DNA of 64,000 nt from Candidatus Bipolaricaulota bacterium (GTDB lineage: Bacteria > Bipolaricaulota > Bipolaricaulia > UBA7950 > UBA9294), in assembly GCA_030606565.1 (NCBI GenBank), contig JAUWGE010000002.1, positions 36,107 through 100,106 on the forward strand. The letters run 5' to 3'. The translations under genes were made by a program, and so were the position numbers. Below the pieces are notes generated by a model, which had not been told where the DNA came from, did no database searches, and saw only the letters and a program-made list of their open reading frames with translations. Each line of letters opens with the position of its first letter. The stretch's first letter is position 1. This document shows positions 1,442 to 63,341 of this stretch, one piece after another.

Positions 1442-2753
1442 TTCGTGCCCCTGCCTTCCTCAACCGACCAAGCTCGTGGGTAGAGAGCAAGGCCTCAATC
1501 TCGATTCCTTCCTCAGTGTATTCCTTGATGGTCCCCCTTCCTTGCTGGGTGAAGCGGTGCACAAGGTCGCTCGCCGCGTAGGGGACCAACAAGGACGCTT
1601 CGACCTCATCTTGGTTCAACACGGTGCGGATGCGGTGAAGCAGACCGTCGATGTGAGTGCCTTCTTTCGCCGAGATCCGAACCCCCGCAGACGAGAACTC
1701 CGCCCTTTCTCCATCATGATCGATCAGGTCAAACTTGTTCAGAACGTTGAGGATCGGTGGGCGAAAGGCATCGGTGGTGAAAACCTCCTGATTGAGGGTC
1801 TCAAGAACAGCTTCATAGTCCTCCTCGAGTGAGGAGCTATCAAGGTCGACGATGTGGAGGATCAGGTCAGCGTCGCGTACTACCTCCAGCGTAGCGGCGA
1901 AAGCGGGGATCAAATCATGCGGGAGGGCGCGAATGAACCCAACCGTATCGATGAACAGTGCCCATCTCCCTGAGCCGAGTTCTCCTCGGCGGACCGTGGT
2001 AGAAAGGGTAGCGAACAGCTTGTCCTCGACAAGGGCATTTGACCCACACAGGCGGTTCAACAGCGTCGACTTGCCGCTGTTGGTGTAACCGACGAGGACA
2101 ACCTGCGGAAGAGAGCTCATCTTCCGCCTCTTCCGCCGCAGTGCGCGCTCGGCCTTCGCCTTCACGAGGCGGCGCTCGATAGTGTGAATCCGCCGATTGA
2201 TCTTCTTACGGTCGAGTTCGAGCTGCGTCTCCCCAGGGCCACGCGTCCCGATCCCTCCGCCGAGTCGGGTAAGGGCGCTCCCCCAGCCGCGTAAACGCGG
2301 GAGGAGGTAGCGAAGCTGGGCAAGTTCCACCTGCAGTTTTGCTTCTTTCGTTGCCGCCCGCTGAGCGAAGATGTCCATGATCAGCTGTGTGCGGTCGATC
2401 ACCTTTCTACCAATCGCCTCCTCCAGGTTGCGCGCCTGTGCTGGCGAGAGCTCGCCATCGAAGATGATTACCTCAGCATCAAGCTCGCTCGCTACCGCCT
2501 TCACTTCTGTAGCCTTCCCCTTCCCAATAAAGGTGGACGAGTCAGGACGCGGTCGCTTCTGGATTACATGCGCTAGGACCGGGACCCCTGCTGTATCAGC
2601 GAGTAACTCCACCTCGCGCAGGGAATCCATCGCTCCCTCACCGGGAGGTTGTAGGCCGACAAGTAAAGCTCGCTCGGAGCCATAGATGCGCGCCCGCTCA
2701 CCGAGACGGTCCTCGATCAATGGCCGGCCTTTTCGATCACCGCTCTCGTTCAA
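1410..2753 (-). CDS. hflX: GTPase HflX
   Basis: 447 aa. N-terminal HflX domain followed by the G domain with P-loop GYTNSGKSTLLNRL. Overlaps murA by 17 nt. Confidence 0.9.
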   Translation of the reverse strand: MNESGDRKGRPLIEDRLGERARIYGSERALLVGLQPPGEGAMDSLREVELLADTAGVPVLAHVIQKRPRPDSSTFIGKGKATEVKAVASELDAEVIIFDGELSPAQARNLEEAIGRKVIDRTQLIMDIFAQRAATKEAKLQVELAQLRYLLPRLRGWGSALTRLGGGIGTRGPGETQLELDRKKINRRIHTIERRLVKAKAERALRRKRRKMSSLPQVVLVGYTNSGKSTLLNRLCGSNALVEDKLFATLSTTVRRGELGSGRWALFIDTVGFIRALPHDLIPAFAATLEVVRDADLILHIVDLDSSSLEEDYEAVLETLNQEVFTTDAFRPPILNVLNKFDLIDHDGERAEFSSAGVRISAKEGTHIDGLLHRIRTVLNQDEVEASLLVPYAASDLVHRFTQQGRGTIKEYTEEGIEIEALLSTHELGRLRKAGARIIACSSFQRE

Positions 2754-3984
2754 TCTGTGCCCCCAAGAGGCTTAGTTTTACCTCGATCTTTGCATAGCCA
2801 CGGTCAATCTGCTCAAGCTGAGAAATCGTGGTGCAACCCTGGGCAGCGAGCCCGGCGAGGACGAGGGCGGCTCCAGCGCGAATGTCTGGCGCGTCCACTT
2901 CCGCTCCCCACAGGGTGCTCACACCGGTGATGGTGGCCGTCCGATCTGTGAGTACAATGTGAGCTCCCATACGCTTGAGTGACGGGATATATCCAAAGCG
3001 GCGCTCAAAGACCGTTTCCTTAATCACACTTTTTCCCCTCGCCAAACTGAGCATGGCGACAAGCGGAGGCTGGAGGTCAGTTGGAAATCCCGGGTGGGGC
3101 GCGGTACTCACTCGCACTGGGTGCGGACGCTCGGTATTGGCAAGCACGATTGTATCGTTCCCCTCGACACACATCATCCCGGCCTCCTTAAGGACGGCGA
3201 GCAACGGGCGCAGGTGCTTCGGGACCACACCTCTCACTTCCACTTCGCCGCCTGTGATTGCCGCCGCAAGGAGATAGGTTCCCGCCTCCAACCGATCAGG
3301 GATAACCGTATGCTCGGCCCCGTGAATACTCTCTGTCCCTACGACTCTGATCGCAGTTGGCGTGACCTCGATTTGGGCGCCCATTTTACGTAGAAGGTCG
3401 ATCAGATCAGCGACTTCAGGTTCCTTAGCCGGGTTCTCAATCCACGTCTCTCCCTTGGCCAGCGTGGCAGCCATGACCAGCTGTTCGGTTGCTCCCACTG
3501 ACGGGTACGGAAGGTCGATCCGAGCACCACGGAGTTGCTCCGCACTGACGGCGATATAGTCAACACGCTCCTCGATTATTGCCCCAAGTCGTTTAAGCCC
3601 CTGTAGGTGAAGATCGATCGGGCGGGGTCCGATCGTGCATCCACCGGGAAGCGGAACCACAGCGTGCCCGAGGCGGGCAAGAAGCGGACCGAGGATGAGA
3701 AACGAAGCACGCATCTGTTTAACATAACACGCCTCCGCCTCCGCTTTCAACGCGCCCCCGTGGGTAATCTCCACCCGGTCCCCTTCACGTGTTACCCTCT
3801 TCCCCAACGAGGTGATGGTGGCGAGAATCGTGCTCACATCGCGTAACTGCGGTATGCGATAAAGGGTGACTGGCTCGTCGGTCAGGAGAGTAGCGACGCA
3901 AGCAGGCAGAGTAGCGTTCTTTGCCCCCTCTACGTTGATCGATCCGGTAAGCCGCCTTCCTCCCTTAATTGACAGGTACTCCAT
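2737..3984 (-). CDS. murA: UDP-N-acetylglucosamine 1-carboxyvinyltransferase
   Basis: 415 aa starting MEYLSIKGGRRLTGSINVEGAKNATLP, collinear with MurA over its full length. Confidence 0.9.
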   Translation of the reverse strand: MEYLSIKGGRRLTGSINVEGAKNATLPACVATLLTDEPVTLYRIPQLRDVSTILATITSLGKRVTREGDRVEITHGGALKAEAEACYVKQMRASFLILGPLLARLGHAVVPLPGGCTIGPRPIDLHLQGLKRLGAIIEERVDYIAVSAEQLRGARIDLPYPSVGATEQLVMAATLAKGETWIENPAKEPEVADLIDLLRKMGAQIEVTPTAIRVVGTESIHGAEHTVIPDRLEAGTYLLAAAITGGEVEVRGVVPKHLRPLLAVLKEAGMMCVEGNDTIVLANTERPHPVRVSTAPHPGFPTDLQPPLVAMLSLARGKSVIKETVFERRFGYIPSLKRMGAHIVLTDRTATITGVSTLWGAEVDAPDIRAGAALVLAGLAAQGCTTISQLEQIDRGYAKIEVKLSLLGAQIERER

Positions 3985-13679: not shown

Positions 13680-13802
13680 GATCGGTCCACTTCAATATAA
13701 CTGATAGGGGATAGTCGGTCAAACGCTGATCAGGGCTGAATTCGAGGAACGCAGTTATCGCGGTGGCCGCCAGTGTGTCTATTCCAGTATCATCTTAGCA
13801 AG

Positions 13803-16800
13803 ATGATTATCCGCCGGTGCGATCGATATGTGCTTCGGGAAATGAGCGGGCCATTCCTCATCTCCCTATTTGGCCTACTTCTCTTCATCCTCTTGAACTT
13901 GATCCTCTCCCTTTCTGATCTAATGGTCGATCGAGGAGTAGGGATTACCACGCTCATGAGACTCCTGTTGCTAAAGATGCCCAGTCTGCTTGTCCTTGCT
14001 CTCCCCGTAAGCGGGCTCTTTGCCACCTTCCTCGGCTTGGGGAGGTTGGTACATGACCGGGAGGTAATGGCCTTAGAAGCAGCGGGGATTTCGCTTCGTC
14101 GCATTCTTCTACCCTTACTGGCAGCTGCATTCCTCCTTGGAGGTCTTGACTTTGCTCTCTACAACTGGGCCGTCCCCTTCTCGGAGCATGCCTATCAGCA
14201 GGAGCTGCGGGGAATAATCTTCCGCCATGGGGTACCGCATATCCAGGCAAACACCTTCTTCAAAGGACCGGAAGGGCAGTTCTTCTATGTGCGTCGCTAC
14301 GATGCGCAGGATGGTACCCTTCGCGGAATCCTCGTTTACGACATCGAGGGAAAGATATTTCCCCAGGCGGAGGCAGCGGTAACGATCCTCACTGCCGAGA
14401 CGGGGCGTTGGGAGCAAAGAGCGTGGGATCTTAACGAAGGTAGGGTGTACAGCTACAATCAAAAAGGAGAGCTGATCTACACCGGCACATTTGAGCAGTT
14501 CCACGTGGCGGTCGAACGGAGTGAGGTGGACTTCCTTCTTCGATCGCGCACACCAGCAGAGATGGGGATTGGGGAGCTTCGCAGCCGGATCACCCTGTTG
14601 CGAACAAGCGGTCTTCCTGCCGCCGATTTCATCGTCGAGTGCCACCTCAAAGCAGCAATTCCGTTGGCAACGCTGGTCTTCGTCTTGTTCGGTGGCTCGA
14701 CTAGCCTGATCTTCGGGTGGCGGAGCCGGGCAGCAGGAGTGGTAATTAGCCTCCTGCTTGTCGGCCTCTTCCAGGGTGTTCTTCTGTGGACACAGACCTT
14801 GGGAAGGCGAGGGATGATCCCTCCTTCACTTGCCGCCTGGATACCTAATATCCTGTTCGGCCTTATAGGAATCTTCCTTTTCCTCCGGCTCGACCGGTTG
14901 CGCTACCGAGACCTGTGGACTCGGATTCGCCACACCTTCCCGTTTTTAGGAATTCTTCTTTTGGTAAGCCTCCTCGCGTGGGGAGATGAGATCCCAGTCG
15001 AGATCGAGTGTGAAGAGCTTTTCATCTCAGCCGACCGCACGCATGTGCACGCTCAGGGAGCGGTACGCCTCTCCTATGGGGAGACTCTACTCTCGGCCGA
15101 CCAGGTGACCCTGGATGAGGAGGAGGAAGGTTCCTGGAAGCTGCGTGCCTCGGGGGAGGTCCACCTCGCCATCGGGGAGGATTTAACCCTTTCTGGGGAT
15201 GATCTCTCGACCCTTCTTGTACTTGAGGATAGATCGCTCATCACTCGCGAGGCAACGGCGGTCTGCTTTCGCGGCAAGAGCTTGTTTTTGAACTCCCAGG
15301 GAGAGGAGCAACTCCTCCTCTACCAAGGGAAGGAGGGACGTATCGAGTTCGATTCCAATGGGGAGGTCACTTTGATCGAAGTGCGCGAGGGACAGCTGAC
15401 GACTTGCGACTGTTACGGAAGGGCCCTCCGGGACCAGCCCTACTCGATCGAGATGGGGAGGCTTCTCCTCTACCCTGATCGGCTGCTCGTTGCTTTTAAT
15501 CTCACCGTTTCGTCCTTCGGATATCCCGTCTTTTGGCTTCCTGTCTACGTTCAGCCGCTTGAGGAGACGCTTGATAGCCCGCTTTTCCCCGCGATCGGGA
15601 AAAGCGGGCTTCGTGGCTGGTTTCTCAAGTGGAACTTCCCATTCTACCTCGACGAGGAAAACTATGGGGCGGTCCTATTCGATTGTTTCAGTCGCTTCCA
15701 CGAAGTGGGATTGGGTACGGTCTTACACTACGCTTTTGCCGCACATCAAGGTAAAGCAAAGGTGTATTACTTCCCGGCGCAAGTCGGGGATCGCGTCTTT
15801 GAGGTCTCCCTCGACCACACCGTTACCCTCACCGAGAGGTGGGGAATGGGGGGGCGCCTTGCATACAACCAGCTCGGAGAGGAGAAGAACCTCTCCTTTG
15901 CCTTCTCCCTGAACGGGGACGTGGATGGTTGGAGGTTCAATCTCTCCGCAGAGCGAAGTCGTGAAGAGGAAGAGGAGGTGATCTATACTACCGAGCGCCT
16001 ACCTGAGTTGGTCATCTCCCGGACGCGGATTGACATTGATCCCTTTTACATTCTCCCGCGCCTCGAAGCGGGGTGGTTTCGCGAGTGGAAAGGGGAGAAA
16101 GGGGGCGAGGTGTCAGTGAGTGAGTCGTTCCGTTTCGACGGTTCTTTAGAAACTACGCTAAGACCGTTCTCCTTTTGGGGATTCACCCTCACACCTACGA
16201 CCAGTCTTCGCTTGACCCACTACGAGGCCGGCGTGGAAAGCCAAAGCCGAGAAGCCCTCTCCTGCTCCGCCTCGCTTTGCTACCCTGGAATGGATCTATC
16301 CTACACCTACCTCCAGATTAACGGGAGGAGCCCCCTCTATTTCGATCGCCTCAAGTCCGTAAACCAGATCAGTTGGCGCTTCGCACGTGAGAACACACTC
16401 TCGCTACATGTCAATGGGGGATTCGATTTGGCAACCGTGACCTTCGACCCACTCCTGATAACCGCCCGTTGGAGTGGATGGTCATCTTTAACCCTCCTTA
16501 CCCGCTACGACCTCATGACCGCAGTAGTAGAGGAGATCAGCTTGAGTGGGCGATGGAACAGTGAGACAAACGAGATCTCCTGGGAGGTTCCCTACGAGCC
16601 CCGAGTTGGGAGATTCAAGCCGATTGTATTCGAGATTCGTGGAAAGGGTAAGACAGGGAAGCTCACCCTGACGGGAAAGGTCGACCTCGGAGAGGCGAAG
16701 TTGATCGAGGAAGTACTACACGTCGAGTTACGATCGGAAGTGGGATGGGGAATTAACTTAAGCGGCCGCTATGAGCAAGGAAGCCAAACGATCCTGGCTC

Positions 16801-16955
16801 CCAGCCTCGGTCTGTTTCGTGACCTGTGCGACTGCCTGCGGATTGGGATTGAGTACAAATCTGGGCAAGTCTGGGTCTACACCTCGATCCTTGCCTTCCC
16901 CAAAGCAGTCCTTCGCTACGCACCAACCGGGGCCGGCTTGGAAGTGGGGCAATAA
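13803..16955 (+). CDS. LptF/LptG-family LPS export permease fused to an LptD-like (OstA N-terminal jellyroll plus C-terminal barrel-like) domain
   Basis: The N-terminal ~370 aa (YVLREMSGPFLISLFGLLLFIL..., six predicted TMs with a periplasmic insert) match YjgP/YjgQ. An extra TM follows (FLGILLLVSLLAW). Next comes an OstA/LptA-like repeat region (ISADRTHVHAQGAVRLSYGETLLSADQVTLDEEE...) and a long beta-rich C-terminal domain with an LptD-like motif (GYPVFWLPVYVQP). The ORF runs from 13773; M at 13803 is the likely start. Confidence 0.65.
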   Translation: MIIRRCDRYVLREMSGPFLISLFGLLLFILLNLILSLSDLMVDRGVGITTLMRLLLLKMPSLLVLALPVSGLFATFLGLGRLVHDREVMALEAAGISLRRILLPLLAAAFLLGGLDFALYNWAVPFSEHAYQQELRGIIFRHGVPHIQANTFFKGPEGQFFYVRRYDAQDGTLRGILVYDIEGKIFPQAEAAVTILTAETGRWEQRAWDLNEGRVYSYNQKGELIYTGTFEQFHVAVERSEVDFLLRSRTPAEMGIGELRSRITLLRTSGLPAADFIVECHLKAAIPLATLVFVLFGGSTSLIFGWRSRAAGVVISLLLVGLFQGVLLWTQTLGRRGMIPPSLAAWIPNILFGLIGIFLFLRLDRLRYRDLWTRIRHTFPFLGILLLVSLLAWGDEIPVEIECEELFISADRTHVHAQGAVRLSYGETLLSADQVTLDEEEEGSWKLRASGEVHLAIGEDLTLSGDDLSTLLVLEDRSLITREATAVCFRGKSLFLNSQGEEQLLLYQGKEGRIEFDSNGEVTLIEVREGQLTTCDCYGRALRDQPYSIEMGRLLLYPDRLLVAFNLTVSSFGYPVFWLPVYVQPLEETLDSPLFPAIGKSGLRGWFLKWNFPFYLDEENYGAVLFDCFSRFHEVGLGTVLHYAFAAHQGKAKVYYFPAQVGDRVFEVSLDHTVTLTERWGMGGRLAYNQLGEEKNLSFAFSLNGDVDGWRFNLSAERSREEEEEVIYTTERLPELVISRTRIDIDPFYILPRLEAGWFREWKGEKGGEVSVSESFRFDGSLETTLRPFSFWGFTLTPTTSLRLTHYEAGVESQSREALSCSASLCYPGMDLSYTYLQINGRSPLYFDRLKSVNQISWRFARENTLSLHVNGGFDLATVTFDPLLITARWSGWSSLTLLTRYDLMTAVVEEISLSGRWNSETNEISWEVPYEPRVGRFKPIVFEIRGKGKTGKLTLTGKVDLGEAKLIEEVLHVELRSEVGWGINLSGRYEQGSQTILAPSLGLFRDLCDCLRIGIEYKSGQVWVYTSILAFPKAVLRYAPTGAGLEVGQ

Positions 16956-46029: not shown

Positions 46030-46851
46030 TTAAAAAAGTATCCCGATTTCCGCCTCTTCTTTCGCCTCACTGAACCATGCCTCCCAGGTATCAGCTTCGA
46101 TCTTTGGCAGAAGCTTCTCACGAATCTGATCTTCTACCTCGACAAGCGGAGGGATGGATTCATCTTCGGAAGCAAATTCATCCCCGTGCTCTTCGTAATA
46201 AGCAGCTATCTCCTCATCGCTCACTGTGGCGTCCTGGACGATCTTATCATGGAGCCCTTGAACCAAAAGTTGCTCGCGGAAGGAGGTCCTCAATCGTTCC
46301 TTGTACTCATCCAAACTCGACCCCTTCTGTTTCAAGATTCCGTCGATGTCCTCGAGCGTCAGTTGGTTCTGCTCCATGATCTGATCGAGCTGTCCCTCAA
46401 CCCGCTCCTCGACTGTTGCCTCGTCCACCTCAATCGTTTCTTCAATCGCCTTCTGAACCAACAGACGACTATCTATCATCTGATGAAGCACATCGAGTTG
46501 ATAGACACGTAAGAAGGCTTCTCCTTCAGGGGTGGAGAGAAGGACCTGCCCAAAATGTAAAAATTGCGTAAAAAGCACCTGAAATATGCTGTTTAGGCCC
46601 GCGGCTGCCGCCAATTCGTCTTTGGTGACAATCTCACCGTTTACTAGAGCAGCGATTGTCTCTGATCCTGTCTGTGTTTCATCCTGAGCGGATGTACTCT
46701 GCGCGATAGCAATCGATGAGACTGAGACGAGGAAAAAACCTGCCAATAGAAAGATAAGCGCCTGTTTCAAGTTAAGCCCCCCTCTTGAGTTTCGAGTATG
46801 AAGATCTTTCCTCATCCTGACTGTCTTTTCAAGAAGGCCGGTTTGCTTCAT
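46030..46851 (-). CDS. SurA N-terminal domain-like periplasmic chaperone (no PPIase domain)
   Basis: Signal anchor [20 protein letters not shown], then a region resembling the SurA/PpiD N-terminal chaperone domain ([18 protein letters not shown]...[13 protein letters not shown]). Confidence 0.6.
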
Positions 46852-52577: not shown

Positions 52578-54662
52578 CTAGATCGTTAGATCAAGCTTAA
52601 TCTGAAGGATCAGTTCATCGCTATCCTTTGTTGGATCATTCCAGTCTACTACGTTCTTCCACGCCAAGGAGAAGGAGATGTCCAGACCATCGGCGATCTC
52701 TCCGTCCCACGAGAGCTCAGCGTGGCGCGTTTCCTTGACCAATGTCTCATTTGACAGGGCTGTCAACGTCCGCTTCGTCTCATCGCTCAGCTGGAGCTGA
52801 AAGGTTCCTTCTGCGACCTCCCAAGAGGTGTCCAGGCTGATTGTCGTCTCCCTCGAAGTGGGTTTAGCGGCATTATTGGGGTGAGCGGTCACCTTGTTTG
52901 TGAGTCCAGCCGAAATGCTCGCCTCAGAAAGATCGAAATCGAGCTGTAGACCGATCTCCTGTACCCATTGGTCCTTCTTGCTGGCGTGAGGGTAGGTCGT
53001 CTGTTGATGAAAGAGCGTCAGCGCAAGGTCGCCGCAGGCCATCTCATTCTCGACTGATCCCTCCCATTTTCGCAAGGAACGGTTCTTGACCGTAGCATTG
53101 GGGTAGACCAGTTCTTCTCGCTCGAGATAGCCGCTGATCGTGGATGCGGACTCATCCCTGGTGTAGCTCACCTTTTGGGTAGACGTGTCACGATTGAGCA
53201 GGCTATCCGCCGGGTAGGTCTTGTTCTCCCACTCAAGGTCGAGCGTCAGGTCTCCGTCATGGAATGGGAAGCCGCACGACAACGGGATGTCAAGCTGCCG
53301 AATTCGCTTACGCGGAAGGATCAACAGCGCCTTGTCCGCCAAGAGCTGGGCAGCGTCGGAGGTGATATCACCATCCCATTTCGCATCGTAGACCTCATCG
53401 ATGAAATCCTCCAACTGGTCGACGGCCTCTCTGCGATCCCCGGCTACAAGTTCCCCCAACGCGCCCTCTTCTCCCAACTCCTTTAGCAGGTCATCTTCCA
53501 CCGCTGCGGGCAGCCCCAATGCGCGCACCTCGTCGATGAGACTCTGAATCGCTGCAATCGCTTGTGAAACCCGGGCGGGCTCAATCTCATCGTCGATATA
53601 GTTTGGGTAGGACTCGGAGTCAAAGGAGACCGACCCCGATGCCGCCCAAGGATCGCGATCCCAAGAGAGCGCAAGGTCGAGACTGTGGCTGATCCTGTCT
53701 TTATCGTCCTTCAACCGGTCCGTGTAATCACGATGTTCCTGCTCGTAGTTGATAGAGGTCCCCCAGTCCTCATCTTCAAACCCCGCCCCAATCTCCAAGT
53801 CCGTCGTATGAACGTCCTTGCTCGGGGCACGGTAGTCATCCGACTCCCAAGTGAGCGTACCATCGAGGTCAATACCCCCAACCGTAGTCGATAGCTCTAG
53901 CTCCCAGAGGCGCTCTGTCCCCTGCTCTTGCACCTTTCGCAGCAGGTAGTCGCCCTTGTACCTGATCCTGTCTGCCTCTTCCTCCTTGATCGCCTCGCCA
54001 CGGTATTGATCAATACGGACTAGAAGCTTCTCTAAATCGCGAATATAGTCTGCCTTGTTGCCATCGGTGAGGTGAAGGACGGTCTCCCGCAAGAGGCTCG
54101 CGATCTGCGGCTTCACCTCATCCCTTGTGTATTTTCTGACCTTGTTTACGATGCACTTCAAGTAGTCGTAGCGTTGCTCGATCGGCTTTGCAACGACAAG
54201 GAGCCTTCCCTTATCCGTACGAGAGATTTCTAGGCAATCGTTCACACGATCGATAAACTGCTTGTCAAGTGCCTTCTCGATGTCCTTCAGCTTATGATAT
54301 AGAGTATCGATTGAGATCCCATTGCCAGCGTTCCTGATCTCAGCAAGAGCAGCCTCAGCCTGCCCGAGCGCCTGTTCCAATGTGTCTTTAAGCGTGCCTG
54401 GGGGCAGGGTGTCTGTCTCGCTGCGAAGGTCATTTAGCGTTCTAAGACTCACTCCACTTAAAACCCCTTCCACGGTGTAGTCCACGTCCATCGATATATC
54501 CGCAAGCGCAGAGGAAAGAGTAAACTGCGATTCTAAGTTAAGCTTTTGCTCGGCAAGGCCTACGATGTCCTGGGTGAAGGAGAGCGCATCCTCCTGTTTA
54601 AAATCGATCGTTTGCGAGAGGGCCGGCGGGGTTAGAAAAAGGAAAAACAAAGCCCAAATCAC
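52578..54662 (-). CDS. large hypothetical secreted protein (acidic, beta-rich C-terminal half)
   Basis: 694 aa with signal peptide MIWALFFLFLTPPALSQ. No recognisable catalytic motif. The C-terminal third has an alternating hydrophobic pattern suggestive of beta structure. Confidence 0.55.
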   Translation of the reverse strand: MIWALFFLFLTPPALSQTIDFKQEDALSFTQDIVGLAEQKLNLESQFTLSSALADISMDVDYTVEGVLSGVSLRTLNDLRSETDTLPPGTLKDTLEQALGQAEAALAEIRNAGNGISIDTLYHKLKDIEKALDKQFIDRVNDCLEISRTDKGRLLVVAKPIEQRYDYLKCIVNKVRKYTRDEVKPQIASLLRETVLHLTDGNKADYIRDLEKLLVRIDQYRGEAIKEEEADRIRYKGDYLLRKVQEQGTERLWELELSTTVGGIDLDGTLTWESDDYRAPSKDVHTTDLEIGAGFEDEDWGTSINYEQEHRDYTDRLKDDKDRISHSLDLALSWDRDPWAASGSVSFDSESYPNYIDDEIEPARVSQAIAAIQSLIDEVRALGLPAAVEDDLLKELGEEGALGELVAGDRREAVDQLEDFIDEVYDAKWDGDITSDAAQLLADKALLILPRKRIRQLDIPLSCGFPFHDGDLTLDLEWENKTYPADSLLNRDTSTQKVSYTRDESASTISGYLEREELVYPNATVKNRSLRKWEGSVENEMACGDLALTLFHQQTTYPHASKKDQWVQEIGLQLDFDLSEASISAGLTNKVTAHPNNAAKPTSRETTISLDTSWEVAEGTFQLQLSDETKRTLTALSNETLVKETRHAELSWDGEIADGLDISFSLAWKNVVDWNDPTKDSDELILQIKLDLTI

Positions 54663-55149: not shown

Positions 55150-55425
55150 ATGGCGGTGAGTACCAAGATCCCGAATGATCTGGATAAGCAAACCTTTGCC
55201 AAGCGGGCTAAAGCCCTTTACAACCACAGATACCGCAAGAGACTTGAAGCGGCCGAGTGGGGTAAAGTAATTGCCATTGAAGTGGAAAGCGGGGAGGTTT
55301 TCATCGGCCGTACAGCTTTGGAAGCTGGATTAAAGGCTCGAGAGAAATATCCTGATAAGTTCTTCTACTTTATCCGGATCGGATATCCGGCAGTTCACTG
55401 TCTAAAGAGCCCTGGCAAGCCGTGA
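55150..55425 (+). CDS. small partner protein of retropepsin-like protease module (DUF5678-like)
   Basis: 91 aa with a ...GKVIAIEVESGEVFIGRTALEAGLKAREKYPDKFFYFIRIG pattern. The stop overlaps the start of the downstream protease gene. Confidence 0.55.
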   Translation: MAVSTKIPNDLDKQTFAKRAKALYNHRYRKRLEAAEWGKVIAIEVESGEVFIGRTALEAGLKAREKYPDKFFYFIRIGYPAVHCLKSPGKP

Positions 55426-55805
55426 GTTATCTCGGAAAGGTGTTCTTACAAGGGTTCATCAACGATAATCTGGAGCCAATAGTGGAGAACGTTATCTTAG
55501 TCGGTAAGGAAGAGCGGATTTCACTAGAAGCCATTCTGGACACCGGTTTTAATGGGATGTGCTGCTTGCCAAGGAAGTTCCAACCCCTGTGCGAGCTCAA
55601 TGCTCTCGGCATAGAAACTTTCGAGTTAGCCGATGGAACCTTGGTTGAAGAAGAACTATACGTGGGACAAATTCTCGTGGGTGACGTTTGTTATTCCGTT
55701 GAGCTGACCCTGACTGATGCCGATCGAGCCCTGTTAGGTATGCAATTGTTGCTAGATAAAGTTGCTATCTTCGACCTTAAGACGATGCGAATCGAGGTGA
55801 AATAA
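55422..55805 (+). CDS. retropepsin-like (clan AA) aspartic protease
   Basis: 127 aa with the catalytic motif ILDTGFNGMC (D-T-G), which is a retroviral-type aspartyl protease fold signature. Translationally coupled to the upstream small gene. Confidence 0.65.
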   Translation: MSYLGKVFLQGFINDNLEPIVENVILVGKEERISLEAILDTGFNGMCCLPRKFQPLCELNALGIETFELADGTLVEEELYVGQILVGDVCYSVELTLTDADRALLGMQLLLDKVAIFDLKTMRIEVK

Positions 55806-56080: not shown

Positions 56081-56148
56081 CCCCCGGGTCCTATGGACAT
56101 CAGACTTCGGACTAAGTAGACTATCAGCTATAGGAAGGGGTGTTTTTA

Positions 56149-56445
56149 ATGGTGCTAACAGTACGGACGCAAGAGCTGCTGGAAAAGGTATTGGCAGTCC
56201 TGCCGACTGCTGAGGATGAGGTTATCACTAAGGGCATCACCAGTAGCGTGGCCGATCGGATTCTGGAGTTGAAGAGATCCGCCCACCGCTTGAAGGAGAC
56301 CTATGGCAACGTTGAGAAGCTGGAGAAACGGATCGAGGAGGAAAGTGTCTCCGCGGACGATCATACACTCTACAATGACCTCCTGGAGTGGCGGGCAACT
56401 CTGGACGAGTTGGATAAACTGTTGCAGATTCTAGAATCCCTCTGA
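56149..56445 (+). CDS. hypothetical small helical protein (first gene of a coupled small-gene string)
   Basis: Start MVLTVRTQELLEKV... with an RBS-like GGAAGGGG upstream. The stop overlaps the next start (TGATG). Confidence 0.45.
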   Translation: MVLTVRTQELLEKVLAVLPTAEDEVITKGITSSVADRILELKRSAHRLKETYGNVEKLEKRIEEESVSADDHTLYNDLLEWRATLDELDKLLQILESL

Positions 56446-56843
56446 TGCCAGTCTCTCCGTCTTGGCACCAGAGGGTTCGAACCAGCCTAGAAGCGTCGGG
56501 TATCTTTGCTGGTGTGAAGATCATAGGAGCTAAGGTGCGCGGGGTCATCAGCAAGGAGCTGTATGTGGACATCTATTATGACCCAACCACCAACAGTTAC
56601 TCCTATGCCTTGATCGATCAAACCCTTCCCTATCCAGGGGACAAGCGAGTCTTTCTTTGGGTGGGATGACTATCCACACAAGAACGTGCGGAAATCAAAC
56701 AGCTCGAAAGCTTCCCGCACCATTTCCAGAAACGAAACAAAGAAGGATGGATCTTTGAGGAGTCTCCGATGCGCGGGAACGTGAAGGGCGAGATGGACTT
56801 GGTAATCAAAATGGTGAAAGAATATCTGAAAACATCAACATGA
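56445..56843 (+). pseudogene. small ORF interrupted by an in-frame TGA at 56667-56669; the frame stays coding-like to 56843
   Basis: Reads MPVSPSWHQRVRTSLEASGIFAGVKIIGAKVRGVISKELYVDIYYDPTTNSYSYALIDQTLPYPGDKRVFLWVG, then TGA, then continues in the same frame as LSTQERAEIKQLESFPHHFQKRNKEGWIFEESPMRGNVKGEMDLVIKMVKEYLKTST. Confidence 0.4.
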
Positions 56844-57309: not shown

Positions 57310-58117
57310 GTGAGTCTCATGATGAGACGGCCTTACTTCATCCTTCTTTCCTTGCTGCTCATCGCGGTCCCTATTCTTGGCGGTGACTTGCCCCAGGTCG
57401 TTCAGCCTAACACAACAGGCTATTCGGCCACAGAGGTTGCCGCTCTTGTCCGAGAGATCTCCGCCCTCGAAGAAACGCTCAACGATCATTCCTTCGGCTC
57501 ACGGCGCAGCTTTGCCCCCAACGGGTGGCAGGGCCGCAACTTTGCCGAGTACACCGGGGGAGTCCTCGCCGAGCGGGGATACCCAATTACGCTCGCCAGC
57601 CAACCTGGCTGGCCCGACGGCGTCCATACGTGGGCTCTCAACTGGAGGACAAACGGCCTGGGTCCCGGTGGAAGCCTCCCCGGAACCTGGGAACAGCCAG
57701 CGGAGCCTCGGCTATGTCCCGAGCTATTCAGACAGTACCGGAGACCTGTGGTTCGAGGCGACGTATCTTGACTTCAACGAGGCAGTGAGCCTGCCGGCAA
57801 ATCTCCCACCCGTTGCGAAGATTCGCCCACCCTCCCCTCCTGTTGTGATCAATAAGGGCGTCAGAATCTTCACGGTTGGTTCTCACGACCCAGATGGGGA
57901 AATCGTGCTTTATCGATGGGACTTTGGCGATGGAAATATCAAGACAGCCACAGCATCCAGCATCCGCCACAAGTTCAGAAGACCCGGCACCCATACCGTC
58001 TCCTTGACCGTTGTTGACAACCGCGGCAAGAGCGCTGCCACCAGCGTCACCATCTCGGTTATGGAGCCTGATGGGAGTGTAGCCCCATCCGACGGGGGGT
58101 GTGGGTGTGGGACTTGA
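57310..58117 (+). pseudogene. secreted PKD-domain protein, apparent frameshift between ORFs 57310..57771 and 57377..58117
   Basis: Signal peptide MMRRPYFILLSLLLIAVPILG in frame 1. The PKD domain (YRWDFGDGNIKTATASSIRHKFRRPGTHTVSLTVVDNRGKSAATSVTISV) is in frame 2. The plausible junction is near 57690-57710. Confidence 0.55.
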
Positions 58118-58476
58118 AGATGAACTGAACCGCTTCATTGTGTTCGTTTCCGAGAAGGAGGCCCAACTACTTGAGCAAGTTCCAACGGTACGTCAAACGA
58201 TCGCTTGCTCTCCTCCTATGGCTTACTGGCACGGATAGTCTGACTATCCCGTTTTGAGCTAGCCGTTGAAAACAGGCTCTTCTTACGGTAGTTACTAGAC
58301 TGTAGTTTTCGATCCCAGGGGCCTGTCATCATAAAATCCCGAGATGAGGAAGCCTTTTATCTTCCAGGCTGTATAAAACAAAACCCTCTTTTCTCCTTCC
58401 TTTATCCACAGAACCTAAGAACCAAAAAAGGGCCCTGGCGAACCAGGGCCCTGTATTCACTTGAGTTAAACCTGGG

Positions 58477-60426
58477 CTACCAAATGAAGCCAAAACCCAG
58501 GCTGAAGATCTCCCATCCGCGGAAGGAAACCTCGGAACCAACGGTGAGGGTGAAGTTCGAGAAGAGCGAGACGCTGACATTGACGTCGGTCGCCATCCAG
58601 CTAAACAGCTGGTTGAGCTGGCCGACCTCGGTGTAGTTGGCGTCCTGTGTGAACTCACAGTAGTATACGGGTTCCGCCGGATCCAGGAAGCAGCACTCTT
58701 TCTCATAATCTTTAATGCAGATGCAGCCACAGAACTCTGGATCGGCCTCGTACTCCTTCCCGATGTAGTTGTCGATTGTGATCTCGTAGGCGCCGCCGCA
58801 GCAGGCATCCCCAGCGAGCACGATACCGAACGACTCCCAGGCGTAGTACTTGTACTTGGGCGTCTCCCAGTACTCGAGGTGGATCCCATCGTCAGGACCC
58901 GTGAGGTCGCCGTCGCCATCGTCTTCGAACGGCGGACACCAAGCGGCACAGCCAGTCGGAACGAGGAACCGCAGCATCTCATCCGATGAGATCGTCTTTA
59001 AAGCGTTTGTCGGCAGGTCGTAAAGCACGGTCTTGAAGGTAGCCGTTGCGCCGTTGAACTCACAGGTGAGCGAGAAGTCCTTGATGTCGATCCCGGTCAG
59101 CTTGTTCGCGATAGAGTTGTGTGACTCGTCCTCTTTCCAGTTGGCGAGAAGGGTCATGCTGAAACAGGTATCGAGCCCGAAGCTGGGCTGGCCGCACAGC
59201 GCGAACTCCTTCTCATCGGTGGTTAACTTGATCGAGGCCGTGAGGTCGTAGAAGCCGGGGATGAACGGGATGTCCTTCACGAGGAACTGCAGGTACTCAA
59301 AGCCGACAACCGCCGTCGTGAATGTGCAATCCTCATCCCAGGAAGGCAAGTAGATGGGGATTAGCGTCCCATCAGGCATCACATACTCCTTCAACAGCTC
59401 GTCCTCGCACACGCAGGTGAGGGTCTCCGACTCCTCAGGGCAGACAAGCTTCAGGGCCACATCAAGGGTGGTGTTGCAGCAGAAGGGGATTCCCTCTACC
59501 ATGAAGTATTCCTCGATGAAGCCAATGCCACACCCTGCGGCAACGGCGTAGTTGCCCTTCTTGCCAAGCACGGGACAGCCGGAATCGGTATCCGCCTTCT
59601 TATCCGACTCGGTCATGTTGAAGTAGGTGAAGCTGGTGAAGTTCATACCGCCCACGCTGCCGGCGAGATTCAGCCGGAATCCGGCCCCGATCGGAGTCGA
59701 CCCAGGAACGGTGCAGGTGCCAGTCTGAAGCACGTCTACACCAACAGCATGCGTAGAGCCACTCTGCGGCACGTGCGTCCAGTAGATGTTCTCCGGCATC
59801 TCAACCGGGAATAGGTACTCAGTACAGACGTCCCACAAGAAGATGTCTGTTATGGTGGTCGTCCCGGCCCAGGCGTTCATCAGGAACAGGCCTCCAAGCT
59901 GAACTCCGGCGAGGCTAATATCCACAGCCAGCTCAAAGTCCTTAAACGCTGGCCCAGTTACCTCGGCCCAGCGGTCGAGGCTGCACCCTGGGAAAAGCGT
60001 GAGTACGGTGGTCTTGCAACAGGTAGCGGCGAAATTGTTGTAGAGGTACCAGGGCCAGATCTGGGCTGGGTCAATCCCCCCCCACCATCCCTGCGTCTTT
60101 GTTAGGACGGCAGAAGGCAGGAACTCCATCTTGGCAGCGAGGTTAATCGCCCCGAGGCTGCCTGCGGCGCTGAACTCCTGGGCGTTGAAACCGTGCTGGG
60201 CGTCGAAGCTAGACTTGCTTTCAAAGACGAACCCACCCACGGTATAGTCCACTACCAAGTCGGAACTTAAGCCCCATATCTCCCACCATTGGTAGGGACA
60301 TGGGCTTCCCAACTTATAGAGGTCAAAAGTGTATGTAAAGTCCCAACTGCCTGTAAACGTCTGGGCGGATACTAATGCACCACCCGCCAACACCAACATA
60401 CATGCTATTACGAGAGCTTTCTTCAT
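58477..60426 (-). CDS. large Cys-rich secreted protein, candidate outer-membrane beta-barrel/porin-like partner of the upstream SLH protein
   Basis: 649 aa with signal peptide MKKALVIACMLVLAGGALVSA, more than 30 Cys, beta-rich composition and a C-terminal aromatic end ...SLGFGFIW. The SD AGGAGGTAATGATAG precedes the ATG. Confidence 0.6.
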   Translation of the reverse strand: MKKALVIACMLVLAGGALVSAQTFTGSWDFTYTFDLYKLGSPCPYQWWEIWGLSSDLVVDYTVGGFVFESKSSFDAQHGFNAQEFSAAGSLGAINLAAKMEFLPSAVLTKTQGWWGGIDPAQIWPWYLYNNFAATCCKTTVLTLFPGCSLDRWAEVTGPAFKDFELAVDISLAGVQLGGLFLMNAWAGTTTITDIFLWDVCTEYLFPVEMPENIYWTHVPQSGSTHAVGVDVLQTGTCTVPGSTPIGAGFRLNLAGSVGGMNFTSFTYFNMTESDKKADTDSGCPVLGKKGNYAVAAGCGIGFIEEYFMVEGIPFCCNTTLDVALKLVCPEESETLTCVCEDELLKEYVMPDGTLIPIYLPSWDEDCTFTTAVVGFEYLQFLVKDIPFIPGFYDLTASIKLTTDEKEFALCGQPSFGLDTCFSMTLLANWKEDESHNSIANKLTGIDIKDFSLTCEFNGATATFKTVLYDLPTNALKTISSDEMLRFLVPTGCAAWCPPFEDDGDGDLTGPDDGIHLEYWETPKYKYYAWESFGIVLAGDACCGGAYEITIDNYIGKEYEADPEFCGCICIKDYEKECCFLDPAEPVYYCEFTQDANYTEVGQLNQLFSWMATDVNVSVSLFSNFTLTVGSEVSFRGWEIFSLGFGFIW

Positions 60427-60612
60427 TCTATCATTACCTCCTTACATGTACGTACGTACACTCTCTTTTGCTTTTGACAAGAAGCACGCTCTCTCACCAA
60501 GTTTTTTAAGAGTGTAATCACCTCCTTAGTTCTTGTAGGTTCCGCCTCTCCACTAGATCTTGTCCCTACTATAACACACAAAAAGGTCGATGTCAAGTGA
60601 TCGATATCACCT

Positions 60613-61272
60613 TCAAAGGCCGAGTGTTGCCAGTGCTACAGCGATAATCCCTATAAGAAGTGCCGTCAAAGAGATGATGAAGTTGGCGTTTATGCGATTT
60701 AGGAGCTTTCCAGATGGGCCTTGCTCTTCGAGTTGAGCGATCTGTTGCTCGTTACGCGCTACCCGCGCCTCCAATGGGGAGCTACCCCCTCCCACAAGTG
60801 AGTCCATCTGCGCCTGGAGGCTTGAAAGGTTGTCTGAGACCTTGAATATCAGGTCCTTTAGGATATCTAGATCCTGCGGGGTGACTGACTCGGGGTTGTT
60901 TTGAAGGTAGCGGATCGCTCGCGCGATCAGCGCGGCAGCGGAGTAGCGGTCGAGCGGTTGGTCTCCTTGGTAGCTTCCCCCGGGAAGCCCGGTGATGATC
61001 CCACGCTCGACAAGGTATGAAAGATCATCGTAGGCCCAGTGGTCCCGTGGGACATCACTAAACAGTCCACCGGCCTGCGGTGGCTGCGCAGTTCCATTCC
61101 CTGCTCCCCCATCCCCAAAGGCGATGCCACCCAGAAAAAGGGATAGGGTCGCGATCAACAGGATGACAAATAGATTCTTTTTCACCTTGAAAACCCCCTC
61201 TTCTTCACAGAATCGATAAAGCAGTATAGAGCTTGTTTCGCTCTGAGTCAATAACTGGCTTTTAGCCGCCAA
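60613..61272 (-). CDS. SLH-domain / coiled-coil / C-terminal TM anchor protein (Omp-alpha-like)
   Basis: SLH motif FSDVPRDHWAYDDLSYLVERGIITGLPGGSYQGDQPLDRYSAAALIARAIRYL. Coiled-coil segment (LSSLQAQMDSL...EARVARNEQQIAQLEEQ). C-terminal hydrophobic helix IISLTALLIGIIAVALATLGL. Confidence 0.75.
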   Translation of the reverse strand: MAAKSQLLTQSETSSILLYRFCEEEGVFKVKKNLFVILLIATLSLFLGGIAFGDGGAGNGTAQPPQAGGLFSDVPRDHWAYDDLSYLVERGIITGLPGGSYQGDQPLDRYSAAALIARAIRYLQNNPESVTPQDLDILKDLIFKVSDNLSSLQAQMDSLVGGGSSPLEARVARNEQQIAQLEEQGPSGKLLNRINANFIISLTALLIGIIAVALATLGL

Positions 61273-61372
61273 TCAGCTATCAGCAGTCAGCTAAAAGCCA
61301 AACTGCAAAGACCGACAAGCCAACGTATGAAATGTAGGTTGCTTCTTGCCGTAAGCTGAGAGCTGATCACTG
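61270..61372 (+). repeat. degenerate copies of the intergenic repeat family (one inverted, one direct fragment)
   Basis: CAGCTATCAGC...CAAAGACC (61274-61313) is the reverse complement of the GGTCTTTG...GCTGATAGCTG segment of copies A/B. GCTGAGAGCTGATCAC (61355-61370) matches the CTGAGAGCTG segment of copy A. Confidence 0.55.
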
Positions 61373-62149
61373 CTTCACCTTGAAGCTTCGGCGGTGGATC
61401 GATGATGGACCGAGGCGCTTGAGCGCCGCAAGATGAGCAGGCGTCCCGTATCCCTTGTTAGAATCGAGTCCATATCCAGGGTATTGAGCGTTAAGCTTGA
61501 CCATCATCCGGTCACGATAGACCTTGGCGAGGATGGAAGCAGCCGCGATGTGAAGGGAGCGGGAATCCCCTTTGGTGAACGACAGCGCGGGAGGGCGAGA
61601 AATTGAGTGATTGAGAGATTGAGTGATCGGGGGATTGGAAGATTGAGAGATTGAAAGATTGAGTGATTGAGTGATTGAGTGATCGGATGATTGAGAGATT
61701 GGATGGTTGGGAGTTCTAGGTTGTAAATGATTCAATCTCTCACTCGCTAAATCTCTCAATAGTGTGAGCCCGCGGTCGAGCAGGAGGAGGTCGACCGGGT
61801 GTCTCATGGCGCGATAGGCGCGCTGGGCGGCAAGGGTTAGGGCAAGAACGATCCCGACACGATCGATCTCGGACGGTGTAGCGTAGCCGATCCCCCAGTT
61901 AGAGACGGAAGTGATCCGGGGAAAGAGCGCCTCCCGCCTCTTTGAGGAGACCCGCTTGGAATCGTCGATCCCAGCGAGGAAATCAAGAATCGATGTTCCA
62001 CGTCGGGCATGAAGCCCGACGCTACAGGGATTCCTTTCCTCCTCAACGTCGGGCATGAAGCCCGACGCTACAGGAATGTGGACACAGCAGACGACAACCG
62101 GACCGGCAAGGGCCCCACGACCCACCTCATCGAAGCCGGCAATCTCCAT
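61367..62149 (-). CDS. rnhB: ribonuclease HII with internal low-complexity insertions (the ORF is open to 62467)
   Basis: Canonical N-terminus MEIAGFDEVGRGALAGPVVVCCV at 62149, and C-terminal RNase HII region (SKRREALFPRI..., KGDSRSLHIAAASILAKVYRD). An in-frame 8-bp tandem array and an extra insert (VASGFMPDVEEERNPCSVGLHARRG) interrupt the fold. Confidence 0.8.
   Translation of the reverse strand: MEIAGFDEVGRGALAGPVVVCCVHIPVASGFMPDVEEERNPCSVGLHARRGTSILDFLAGIDDSKRVSSKRREALFPRITSVSNWGIGYATPSEIDRVGIVLALTLAAQRAYRAMRHPVDLLLLDRGLTLLRDLASERLNHLQPRTPNHPISQSSDHSITQSLNLSISQSSNPPITQSLNHSISRPPALSFTKGDSRSLHIAAASILAKVYRDRMMVKLNAQYPGYGLDSNKGYGTPAHLAALKRLGPSSIHRRSFKVKQ
61601..61713 (+). repeat. tandem repeat (GATTGAGN)x14 inside the rnhB reading frame
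   Basis: Fourteen consecutive 8-bp units (gattgagt gattgaga gattgagt gatcgggg gattggaa ...). On the minus strand they encode an 8-aa periodic SITQSLNH-like insert. Inverted partial copies (CAATCTCTCACT, AATCTCTCAAT) follow at 61731-61762. Confidence 0.85.
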
Positions 62150-62453
62150 GGTTTTTATTCTTTTCGTTTCACCGCAGAGATCGCGGAGGCCACAGAGGTT
62201 TTTACCTCTATAGGAGTTCTCCGCGTTCTTTGCGTACCTGGGGGGTGTAGTAAATCCCTCTCCGGACACTACACCCCCCGAGACGGTAGAAGCTTTTGAA
62301 AACGGACGTCGGACGTTGGGGACAAGGCCCTCAACGTCGGGCGTAAAGCCCTCAACGTCGGGCACAAGGCCCTCAACTACAGAGGAGCGGATCTGTTCGT
62401 CGAAGGCGTAGAGCTCACGCACGCGTAAAACAGGTGAGGAGGGGTTCTTGCTC

Positions 62454-63341
62454 CTAGTTTTTGCCATGAAGGCTGAAGTAGCCGTTCATCGGCCCAAAGC
62501 GGGGAAGCGGCCACACACGCAGGTACGGCTCGCCGATGAGGTCGTCCTCATCGACAAATCCCCAGAAACGCGAATCCCAGGAGTCCTCCGAGTTATCCCC
62601 GAGGACAAACCACTTACCTTCCGGGACGAGAGTCGGAGTTACCCCGTAGTGCATACGGGGGTCGCTCGAGGTGTAGTGGCGGTCAAAGCGCGGGCCTTTA
62701 AGTTTCTCTTCGTTTAGATAGATGTCCCCGCCCTTGATATATACGGTTTGCCCTCCTACGGCGATCAGCCGCTTTACATACCGTACTTTCTTTTCACGCC
62801 CCAAAATCCCTAAATCGGCAAGCGAATCGATTCCCACTTCTCTTAACCCCAAGTCCAGTTGGCGGCCTTCATACAATGCAAGATAGATGTGCGTTCCCTC
62901 AGGGAGGGAAGCGATAATCTCATCTGCCCCGGCGGCGACCGCTTGCTGGTTTATATAGATGATCCGATCTTTAACATTAAGACCGGCGCGTGCGGCCCGT
63001 GAGCCGTCTTTTACTTCCTTCACCAGAACCGCTTCGGTGTGCCAAAAGACAACGATGTCCCCTGGCTTGGGATCGCGGAAATAGTAGGAGATCTTATCGA
63101 CAAAGAAACTGTCGGCCACAAGTACACTACGGTCGCCATTGATCGTTGGGTACATCGAATCAGTGGGTACGTGCATGCGCACGGTGACAAAGCTGATCAC
63201 AAGAAAAGCAAGGACACCCGCGACAACAAGGACCTCAACCCACTCCAGGATCTCGCTTGATACTCGCCCGGGGTTATAGCCGAAACGGCGAACCAGGCGC
63301 AGGATGAACGCTTGCTTCTTCTCCTTCTTTTTTCTTTTCAT
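62454..63341 (-). CDS. lepB: signal peptidase I
   Basis: 295 aa with TM anchor, catalytic Ser box PTDSMYPTI, and GDNSEDSWDSRFWGFV (box E). Confidence 0.85.
   Translation of the reverse strand: MKRKKKEKKQAFILRLVRRFGYNPGRVSSEILEWVEVLVVAGVLAFLVISFVTVRMHVPTDSMYPTINGDRSVLVADSFFVDKISYYFRDPKPGDIVVFWHTEAVLVKEVKDGSRAARAGLNVKDRIIYINQQAVAAGADEIIASLPEGTHIYLALYEGRQLDLGLREVGIDSLADLGILGREKKVRYVKRLIAVGGQTVYIKGGDIYLNEEKLKGPRFDRHYTSSDPRMHYGVTPTLVPEGKWFVLGDNSEDSWDSRFWGFVDEDDLIGEPYLRVWPLPRFGPMNGYFSLHGKN

Follow-up and report, generated by a model that had tools for sequence, protein, structure and literature searches.

The toga of Thermotoga maritima is reportedly tethered by a protein pair, Omp-alpha together with Omp-beta, as described by Engel in 1992. 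In later accounts of this bipartite toga tether (Petrus 2012, PMC3387000; Sexton 2023, PMC10160955), Omp-alpha has an S-layer homology (SLH) domain, a rod of 45 to 50 nm, and a transmembrane (TM) helix, the adjacent gene encodes the barrel Omp-beta with 22 predicted strands, and toga fractions are enriched in Omp-alpha. The Thermotoga barrels are without homologues in other phyla (Sexton et al., PMC10160955). Here we describe a locus from Candidatus Bipolaricaulota, a sister of the Thermotogae with a toga-like sheath, within a stretch of 64,000 nucleotides of contig JAUWGE010000002.1 (assembly GCA_030606565.1, positions 36,107 to 100,106; hereafter the window, in whose numbering all coordinates are given). 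Two neighboring genes, one for a small SLH protein (the anchor) and one for a 649-amino-acid (aa) cysteine-rich protein (the barrel), very probably encode a split, OmpM/SlpA-like outer membrane (OM) tether together with a major OM barrel, analogous to Omp-alpha/Omp-beta. We base this reading on the homology of the SLH domain and stalk, the heptads and TM helix of the anchor, the beta-signal of the barrel, conserved gene order, the taxon, the literature, the cysteine pattern, and the diderm context. The same homology, beta-signal, and synteny, together with structural models of the barrel, bear out an earlier note on this DNA that had proposed a tether/porin pair of a diderm envelope.

SlpA and OmpM, the other described relatives of this pair, are trimeric. 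According to a preprint in which SLH proteins were screened for adjacent barrels (Witwinowski et al., bioRxiv 10.1101/2021.05.31.446380), a split OmpM-like system is present in Bipolaricaulota and Fraserbacteria, with CsaB in the immediate vicinity in Bipolaricaulota. The idea of a split tether is correct but, given that preprint, not new.

The SLH anchor protein

The list of open reading frames (ORFs) places both genes on the minus strand, with the anchor frame at 60613-61272 and the barrel frame at 58477-60426. The 219-aa anchor ORF is simply the longest frame that can be read from a TTG codon to the stop. Within it lies a sigma-70-like promoter (TTGACT-17-TATACT, 10 of 12 matches; 61223..61251, minus strand), a purine-rich ribosome-binding site (RBS; GAAGAGGGGG) stands just 5' of a GTG codon at 61185, and the 190-aa product that starts at this GTG is an exact public database entry (P0018; NCBI/Logan). 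We therefore place the anchor gene at 60613..61185 (minus strand, stop codon included), so that the protein is 190 aa long and not 219 aa, as the earlier note had it.

Hydropathy and inspection identify residues 1-24 (VKKNLFVILLIATLSLFLGGIAFG; 61114..61185, minus strand) as a Sec signal peptide with a hydrophobic N-terminus and a putative A-x-G cleavage site (A-F-G), followed by a Gly/Pro linker (residues 25-40). The single SLH domain (residues 41-95; 60901..61065, minus strand) matches Pfam SLH (PF00395) with an E value of 9.9e-8 and 32.3 bits (cutoff 20.8), confirming the domain that had been proposed, and the N-terminal part of the protein matches NCBIfam por_somb (E 1.5e-11). At the position of the TRAE motif the anchor has DRYS (in the context DRYSAA) and the related locus L010 has TRYS; the Arg is retained, and the Thr and Glu positions differ. 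In phmmer searches of PDB the best solved relatives are SlpA of Deinococcus radiodurans (7zgx; E 5.7e-15, residues 21-164) and OmpM of Veillonella parvula (8bym; E 5.9e-9, residues 37-136), with both alignments spanning the SLH domain and the stalk; the SLH domain also aligns to that of Sap.

The stalk (60721..60879, minus strand) consists of two heptad segments, residues 103-130 and 138-155, which are separated by a VGGGSSP break (131-137) and align with the SlpA/OmpM stalks. All eight a/d positions of the first segment are hydrophobic, as are four of the five in the second, whose core reads L-V-N-I-L. The coiled coil of the earlier note is thus real, in two segments, but short. The protein ends in the predicted membrane helix (residues 169-190, FIISLTALLIGIIAVALATLGL; 60616..60681, minus strand), which equals the signal peptide in hydrophobicity (KD19 2.65) and is kept in homologues. 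Of the Omp-alpha architecture that had been suggested, the signal peptide, SLH domain, and terminal TM helix stand; the long coiled-coil rod does not, since heptads are confined to residues 103-130 and 138-155. Cluster searches show the SLH protein to be far better conserved than the barrel: 379 clusters match it at E<=1e-5, and the best 120 of the 379 are approximately 180 to 230 aa long and at least 58% identical. One cluster relative carries the NCBI name 'Candidatus Bipolaricaulota bacterium'.

The predicted beta-barrel and its family

The barrel gene (58477..60426, minus strand, stop codon included) is supported by the ORF list, homologues, and fold predictions. Its product begins with a signal peptide (MKKALVIACMLVLAGGALVSA; 60364-60426, minus strand), and the mature protein (58480-60363, minus strand) ends in FSLGFGFIW (58480..58509, minus strand), a polar-x-G-x-x-hydrophobic-x-aromatic pattern that is conserved in the family. 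These last residues (...SLGFGFIW) fit the beta-signal recognized by the BAM machinery. The protein contains 28 cysteines, 27 of them in the mature part, with four vicinal CC pairs; the earlier note had counted more than 30. It is strongly acidic (84 D+E versus 31 K+R), with Arg and His scarce.

No match to the barrel was found in Pfam or NCBIfam at E<=1, and a search of all PDB sequences with the barrel profile returned a chance glycerol kinase match (E 1.6) as its only result, so that sequence similarity to the OmpM and SlpA barrels is undetectable at this level. AlphaFold (AF2) gave a pLDDT of 68.8 for the barrel with 17 close homologues; with a 51-member alignment (A2) it gave an all-beta model with a pLDDT of 87.0 and a pTM of 0.81, in which approximately 26 to 31 strands are of membrane-spanning length. 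In Foldseek both models match OM barrels only, with the 22-strand barrels of TonB-dependent receptors, together with ushers and LptD, as the best matches; TM-scores are low, at 0.2 to 0.3. The models thus clearly predict the fold class, an OM-type beta-barrel without a close solved relative, and a soluble multi-domain protein, named in the earlier note as a refuting outcome, was not obtained. Its description of a beta-rich, signal-peptide-bearing protein with a GFGFIW end agrees with the signal peptide, the all-beta prediction, and the beta-signal. DSSP places the cysteines of the model mainly at strand ends and in loops.

A word-indexed search with the barrel returned only 17 clusters, none below 46% identity. 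An exhaustive profile search returned 188 representatives of 350 to 930 aa (101 at E<=1e-10), all with the termini typical of this lineage: a stereotyped start (MKKALVL...LGLG..AFAGxLSGSWdT) and end (GFxxTW/F). The clusters are named 'hypothetical protein' throughout, and Pfam domains are absent from the superfamily members examined. The longer of these (687 to 927 aa) were considered as possible SLH-barrel fusions and rejected, since Pfam finds no SLH domain in them; the family therefore contains no fused intermediate. A scan of GTDB genomes gave a single match, on a 3.5-kb contig of a metagenome-assembled genome labeled 'Ca. Eisenbacteria'. This contig is probably mis-binned, because the named relatives of the SLH protein and of the trigger factor in the window (8 of 8) are all Ca. 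Bipolaricaulota.

The beta-signal motif (G at -6, hydrophobic at -3 and -1) is present in 121 of 166 family sequences, and 140 of the 166 end in F or W. Among 62 complete metagenomic barrels, whose lengths run from 359 to 903 aa with a median of 439, 60 end in W or F and all contain cysteines, 6 to 24 each (median 11). In a few distant members of the superfamily the count is 0 or 1, and the clade of the window's barrel stands at the top of the family range. The cysteines that the earlier note had called highly unusual for a porin are present, but that view is softened by their occurrence across the family; they are a general feature of leader-bearing, mostly SLH-adjacent barrels. Five positions (C317, C329, C421, C542, and C543) are invariant in the 51-sequence alignment. 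C316 and C455 are jointly present or absent in 20 of 20 cases, with a joint loss in P0017, as would be expected if the two formed a disulfide. Cysteine co-occurrence was rejected as a general disulfide map, being mainly confounded by phylogeny; C316-C455 stands out from this background, and C137-C299 does so more weakly.

A barrel paralogue of 717 aa with 37 Cys (P0014) is encoded at 1456-3609 of locus L006 (GCA_975000045.1, on a contig shared with L001), beside a phage-integrase gene. It has neither an SLH gene nor the leader 16-mer described below. This setting suggests mobile or exchangeable copies of surface barrels.

Gene order and the conserved leader

The anchor and barrel genes are adjacent and co-oriented, separated by a spacer of 186 bp (60427-60612, minus strand). 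In the window, at L001-L004, and at L010-L015, the gene directly upstream of a family barrel encodes an SLH protein. Every locus with enough flanking sequence has this order, which holds while the barrels diverge down to approximately 28% identity. The SLH-then-barrel arrangement, whose conservation in relatives the earlier note had proposed to check, is thus kept throughout the lineage, within a wider conserved order of ffh-rpsP-KH-trmD-PF09936-rplS-lepB-rnhB-SLH-barrel-...-PKD. Tandem barrel paralogues are present at L010, L055, and L073, and a solitary one without an SLH gene at L006. The spacer contains a strong sigma-70-like promoter (TTGACA-17-TATAGT with TG, 11 of 12 matches; 60568..60596, minus strand), whose -35 and -10 elements are conserved in relatives. 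An intrinsic-terminator-like hairpin (10-bp stem with 8 GC, followed by a T-run; 58429..58452, minus strand) lies just after the barrel gene, and only there. Given the promoter in the spacer and a terminator after the barrel gene alone, the pair is best described as adjacent and co-oriented rather than as co-operonic.

Downstream of this promoter, the barrel gene has a conserved leader of approximately 130 nucleotides (60427..60567, minus strand). The spacer reads, in order, -35 element TCACTTGACAT, 17 nucleotides, -10 element, an exact 16-mer (ATCTAGTGGAGAGGCG; 60543-60558) approximately 8 to 10 nucleotides 3' of the -10 element, an internal Shine-Dalgarno-like element (TAAGGAGGTGAT; 60517-60528), a block of the form GCTTCTTGTCA(A/C)AAGC (in the window GCTTCTTGTCAAAAGC; 60470-60485), the true RBS of the barrel gene (60432-60445), and the ATG, all on the minus strand. 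The Shine-Dalgarno-like element of the window is a perfect 12-nucleotide complement of the 16S 3' end and has no start codon at a proper distance. The 16-mer keeps a set distance of 115 to 148 nucleotides from the ATG. Across the window, L001, L002, L010, L012, L014, and some 90 metagenomic loci (within L016-L135), the spacer DNA is more strongly conserved than the barrel protein.

A scan of a metagenome collection for exact copies of the 16-mer yielded 123 sites. At 81 of these a barrel-family ORF starts 115 to 148 nucleotides downstream, and at 67 an SLH ORF lies just upstream. Where a metagenomic barrel site has at least 750 nucleotides of upstream sequence, the SLH gene is present in 47 of 54 cases. 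Approximately 30 sites have neither gene nearby, which equals the chance expectation for a collection of this size.

RNA structure was rejected as the cause of leader conservation. Single-sequence folds have z-scores of +0.66 to -0.98, RNAalifold on six leaders gives -3.9 kcal/mol without covariation, and on 80 unique leaders it gives no structure or covariation at all. The Rfam search of the leader region had no match at the gathering threshold. The leader would most likely act as an mRNA-stabilising or regulator-binding element of a surface protein that is expressed at very high levels.

Several neighboring genes are of interest in their own right. Adjoining the barrel gene is a gene for a small secreted PKD-domain protein (57377-58117, plus strand), which is kept in nearly all related loci (L001, L002, L008, L010, L012, and L014), in relatives often with a protein of approximately 320 aa that has no Pfam match and that the window lacks. 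Small overlapping ORF pairs without a Pfam match (55150-55805 and 56140-56669, plus strand) separate the PKD gene from that of a 694-aa protein. In L012, L013, and L007 their place is taken by toxin-antitoxin pairs of the RelB/ParE-YafQ and PhdYeFM/ParE types. This interval may be a variable islet. Beyond the SLH gene, the RNase HII ORF (61367-62467, minus strand) is unusually long (366 aa, compared with 212 to 329 aa in relatives), and its Pfam match falls into three stretches split by low-complexity inserts, such as a repeated SQSS/ITQSLN motif.

Envelope context

The first Bipolaricaulota isolate, the Gram-negative J31, has an outer lipid layer as well as toga-like polar sheaths, and its sheath bears a hexagonal surface ('S-layer') lattice with 6.25-nm spacing. 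Hao et al. left it undecided whether Bipolaricaulota have a monoderm or a diderm envelope; in the Bipolaricaulota genome Ran1 they reported a gene for an OM 'bacterial surface antigen'.

Two further genes in the window provide supporting evidence for a diderm-type context. The 1060-aa ORF at 13773-16955 (plus strand) is an LptF/LptG protein over residues 18-372 (Pfam 6.6e-80; PDB LptG 1.9e-14), and its last 690 aa have an OstA/LptA-like start and are beta-rich, with a sub-threshold LptD match (E 0.082) as the only trace of that family. It resembles the 'pABC permease' of the Thermotoga toga, an envelope-spanning LptF/G-LptA-LptD fusion (Sexton et al., PMC10160955). Divergent from uvrB, the gene at 46030-46851 (minus strand) encodes a SurA-N/PPIase-like periplasmic chaperone (SurA_N 3.2e-10), which is compatible with a pathway of OM protein biogenesis; monoderm PrsA-like proteins match similarly.

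The 694-aa secreted protein mentioned above (52578-54662, minus strand) contains a FIMAH-type helical segment (Pfam 1e-5) and has a beta-rich C-terminal half that looks like that of an OM protein, ending in ...LQIKLDLTI. A search of PDB sequences gave no relative of this protein. A similar-looking protein of 712 aa that ends in WEVGVDVDF is encoded near the SLH-barrel-PKD cluster of L010 (5469-7607). The 694-aa protein may be another envelope component.

Proposed mechanism and alternative explanations

By analogy with SlpA and OmpM, three anchor chains would trimerise via the stalk, and their three SLH domains would form the wall-binding unit, whose ligand could be a pyruvylated secondary cell-wall polymer on the peptidoglycan. 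In the outer, toga-like membrane, the anchor's C-terminal helix would sit beside the barrel or in complex with it. The barrel, inserted into the OM by BamA, would be an abundant, surface-exposed, fast-evolving porin or lattice protein whose many loop cysteines may stiffen the extracellular face through disulfides. With a helix of approximately 7 nm, and at most about 10 nm with linkers, the short stalk would set a narrow distance between wall and OM.

A bolder extension of this scheme, which we offer tentatively and consider less likely than not, is that the hypervariable Cys-rich barrel family is itself the 6.25-nm lattice of J31, forming a disulfide-stabilised, protein-dominated sheath reminiscent of chlamydiae, with expression under the conserved unstructured leader as an undescribed mRNA-stabilising or regulator-binding element. 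A Cys-bearing porin in a disulfide-stabilised envelope has a precedent in the chlamydial outer membrane complex, where the porin MOMP occurs with the Cys-rich OmcA and OmcB, and where the cross-links are intermolecular and developmentally regulated. We know of no homology between that complex and the Bipolaricaulota pair.

Several observations weigh against the split tether proposed here. The outer membrane position of the anchor helix is assumed from Omp-alpha, and by established topology rules a Sec substrate of this kind would by default be stopped in the cytoplasmic membrane. The anchor could accordingly be a cytoplasmic-membrane protein whose helix acts as a stop-transfer segment, linking the inner membrane to the wall and merely neighboring an unrelated OM porin. 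The short stalk could bridge the inner membrane to the wall, the barrel gene carries a promoter and a leader of its own, and some barrel paralogues (L006; second copies in L055 and L073) have no SLH gene. However, adjacency is retained at 47 of 54 sites and at all fully flanked loci despite barrel divergence to approximately 28% identity, a homologous SLH and stalk module is covalently joined to an OM barrel in SlpA and OmpM, and Omp-alpha is enriched in the Thermotoga toga fraction, all of which makes an inner-membrane anchor unlikely. Further points on the same side of the balance are that the SLH motif is, as read from the sequence, DRYS instead of TRAE; that CsaB, a pyruvyl transferase, was not found in the 64-kb window or within 10 kb on either side of the related loci; that estimates of the strand number range from 22 to approximately 30; that TM-scores of 0.2 to 0.3 suggest a generic barrel without a close solved relative; and that the host is anaerobic, so that disulfide formation is not guaranteed.

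The identity of the barrel allows other explanations as well. Its best fold matches (22-strand TonB-dependent receptor barrels, ushers, and LptD), its size, and its long loops could be those of a substrate-specific transporter or secretion pore of one of these types instead of a general structural porin or lattice protein. We regard this as improbable; the resemblance to TonB-dependent receptors is limited to the barrel, with no Plug or TonB_dep_Rec match in Pfam or NCBIfam at E<=1. More remote is a secreted, soluble, disulfide-rich S-layer protein or adhesin of a monoderm-like cell, held at the wall by the SLH protein, with the barrel prediction an artefact. Its high Cys content, its place outside known families, the undecided envelope type in Hao et al., and the 'S-layer' lattice on J31 would fit such a protein. 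Yet two independent AF2 models match OM barrels only, 60 of the 62 complete members keep the beta-signal, the Gram-negative J31 has both an outer lipid layer and a toga, and the window encodes an LptF/G-LptA/D-like fusion, leaving a soluble protein highly improbable.

Comparison with known systems

The split tether and barrel resemble the Thermotoga system in several respects. In both, one protein starts with a signal peptide and a single SLH domain, continues with a coiled coil, and ends in a TM helix, and a neighboring gene encodes a large OM beta-barrel. The host belongs to a sister phylum, with a toga-like sheath, no LPS, and an LptF/G-LptA-LptD-type fusion permease. In contrast to Omp-alpha (approximately 400 aa, approximately 45 kDa), the Bipolaricaulota anchor has under half the length, and its stalk of approximately 46 heptad residues in two segments would extend approximately 7 nm, making it roughly 5 to 10 times shorter than the 45 to 50 nm rod of Omp-alpha. 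The barrel appears to belong to a separate, Cys-rich sequence family, set apart from Omp-beta by the statement of Sexton et al. on Thermotoga barrels and by the profile search, whose results all carry the termini of this lineage, and unlike the Thermotoga arrangement its gene has its own promoter and conserved leader.

The SLH and coiled-coil stalk module is homologous to that of OmpM (Veillonella), SlpA (Deinococcus), and the cyanobacterial Som porins. As in the SlpA/OmpM superfamily, there is one SLH domain per chain, implying a trimer, and the protein likely tethers the OM to peptidoglycan or a secondary wall polymer in the manner of Terrabacteria-type diderms. OmpM and SlpA carry stalk and barrel in a single polypeptide; the Bipolaricaulota anchor, in contrast, stops at its TM helix, and a second ORF, 186 bp downstream, encodes the barrel.

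Bipolaricaulota and Thermotogae lie near the base of many bacterial trees, and their sheath-like OMs feed the debate on the origin or loss of the second membrane. With the tether and barrel genes, the limits of the family, and the promoter and leader pinned down, these become targets for proteomics, docking into cryo-electron tomography data, and genetics, now that J31 is available as an isolate. The surface barrel evolves very fast, while the anchor and leader are nearly frozen. At the level of the phylum, the combination of an SLH protein and a neighboring beta-barrel is the same as the split system of Witwinowski et al. (bioRxiv 10.1101/2021.05.31.446380); for this phylum, the general concept of a split OmpM-like tether has been published before, and our findings chiefly refine and document it. 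As far as its text shows, the preprint does not mention Cys-richness, the size range of the barrels, or a conserved leader. The unannotated family of Cys-rich barrels, the short stalk of the anchor, and the conserved leader appear not to have been described before.

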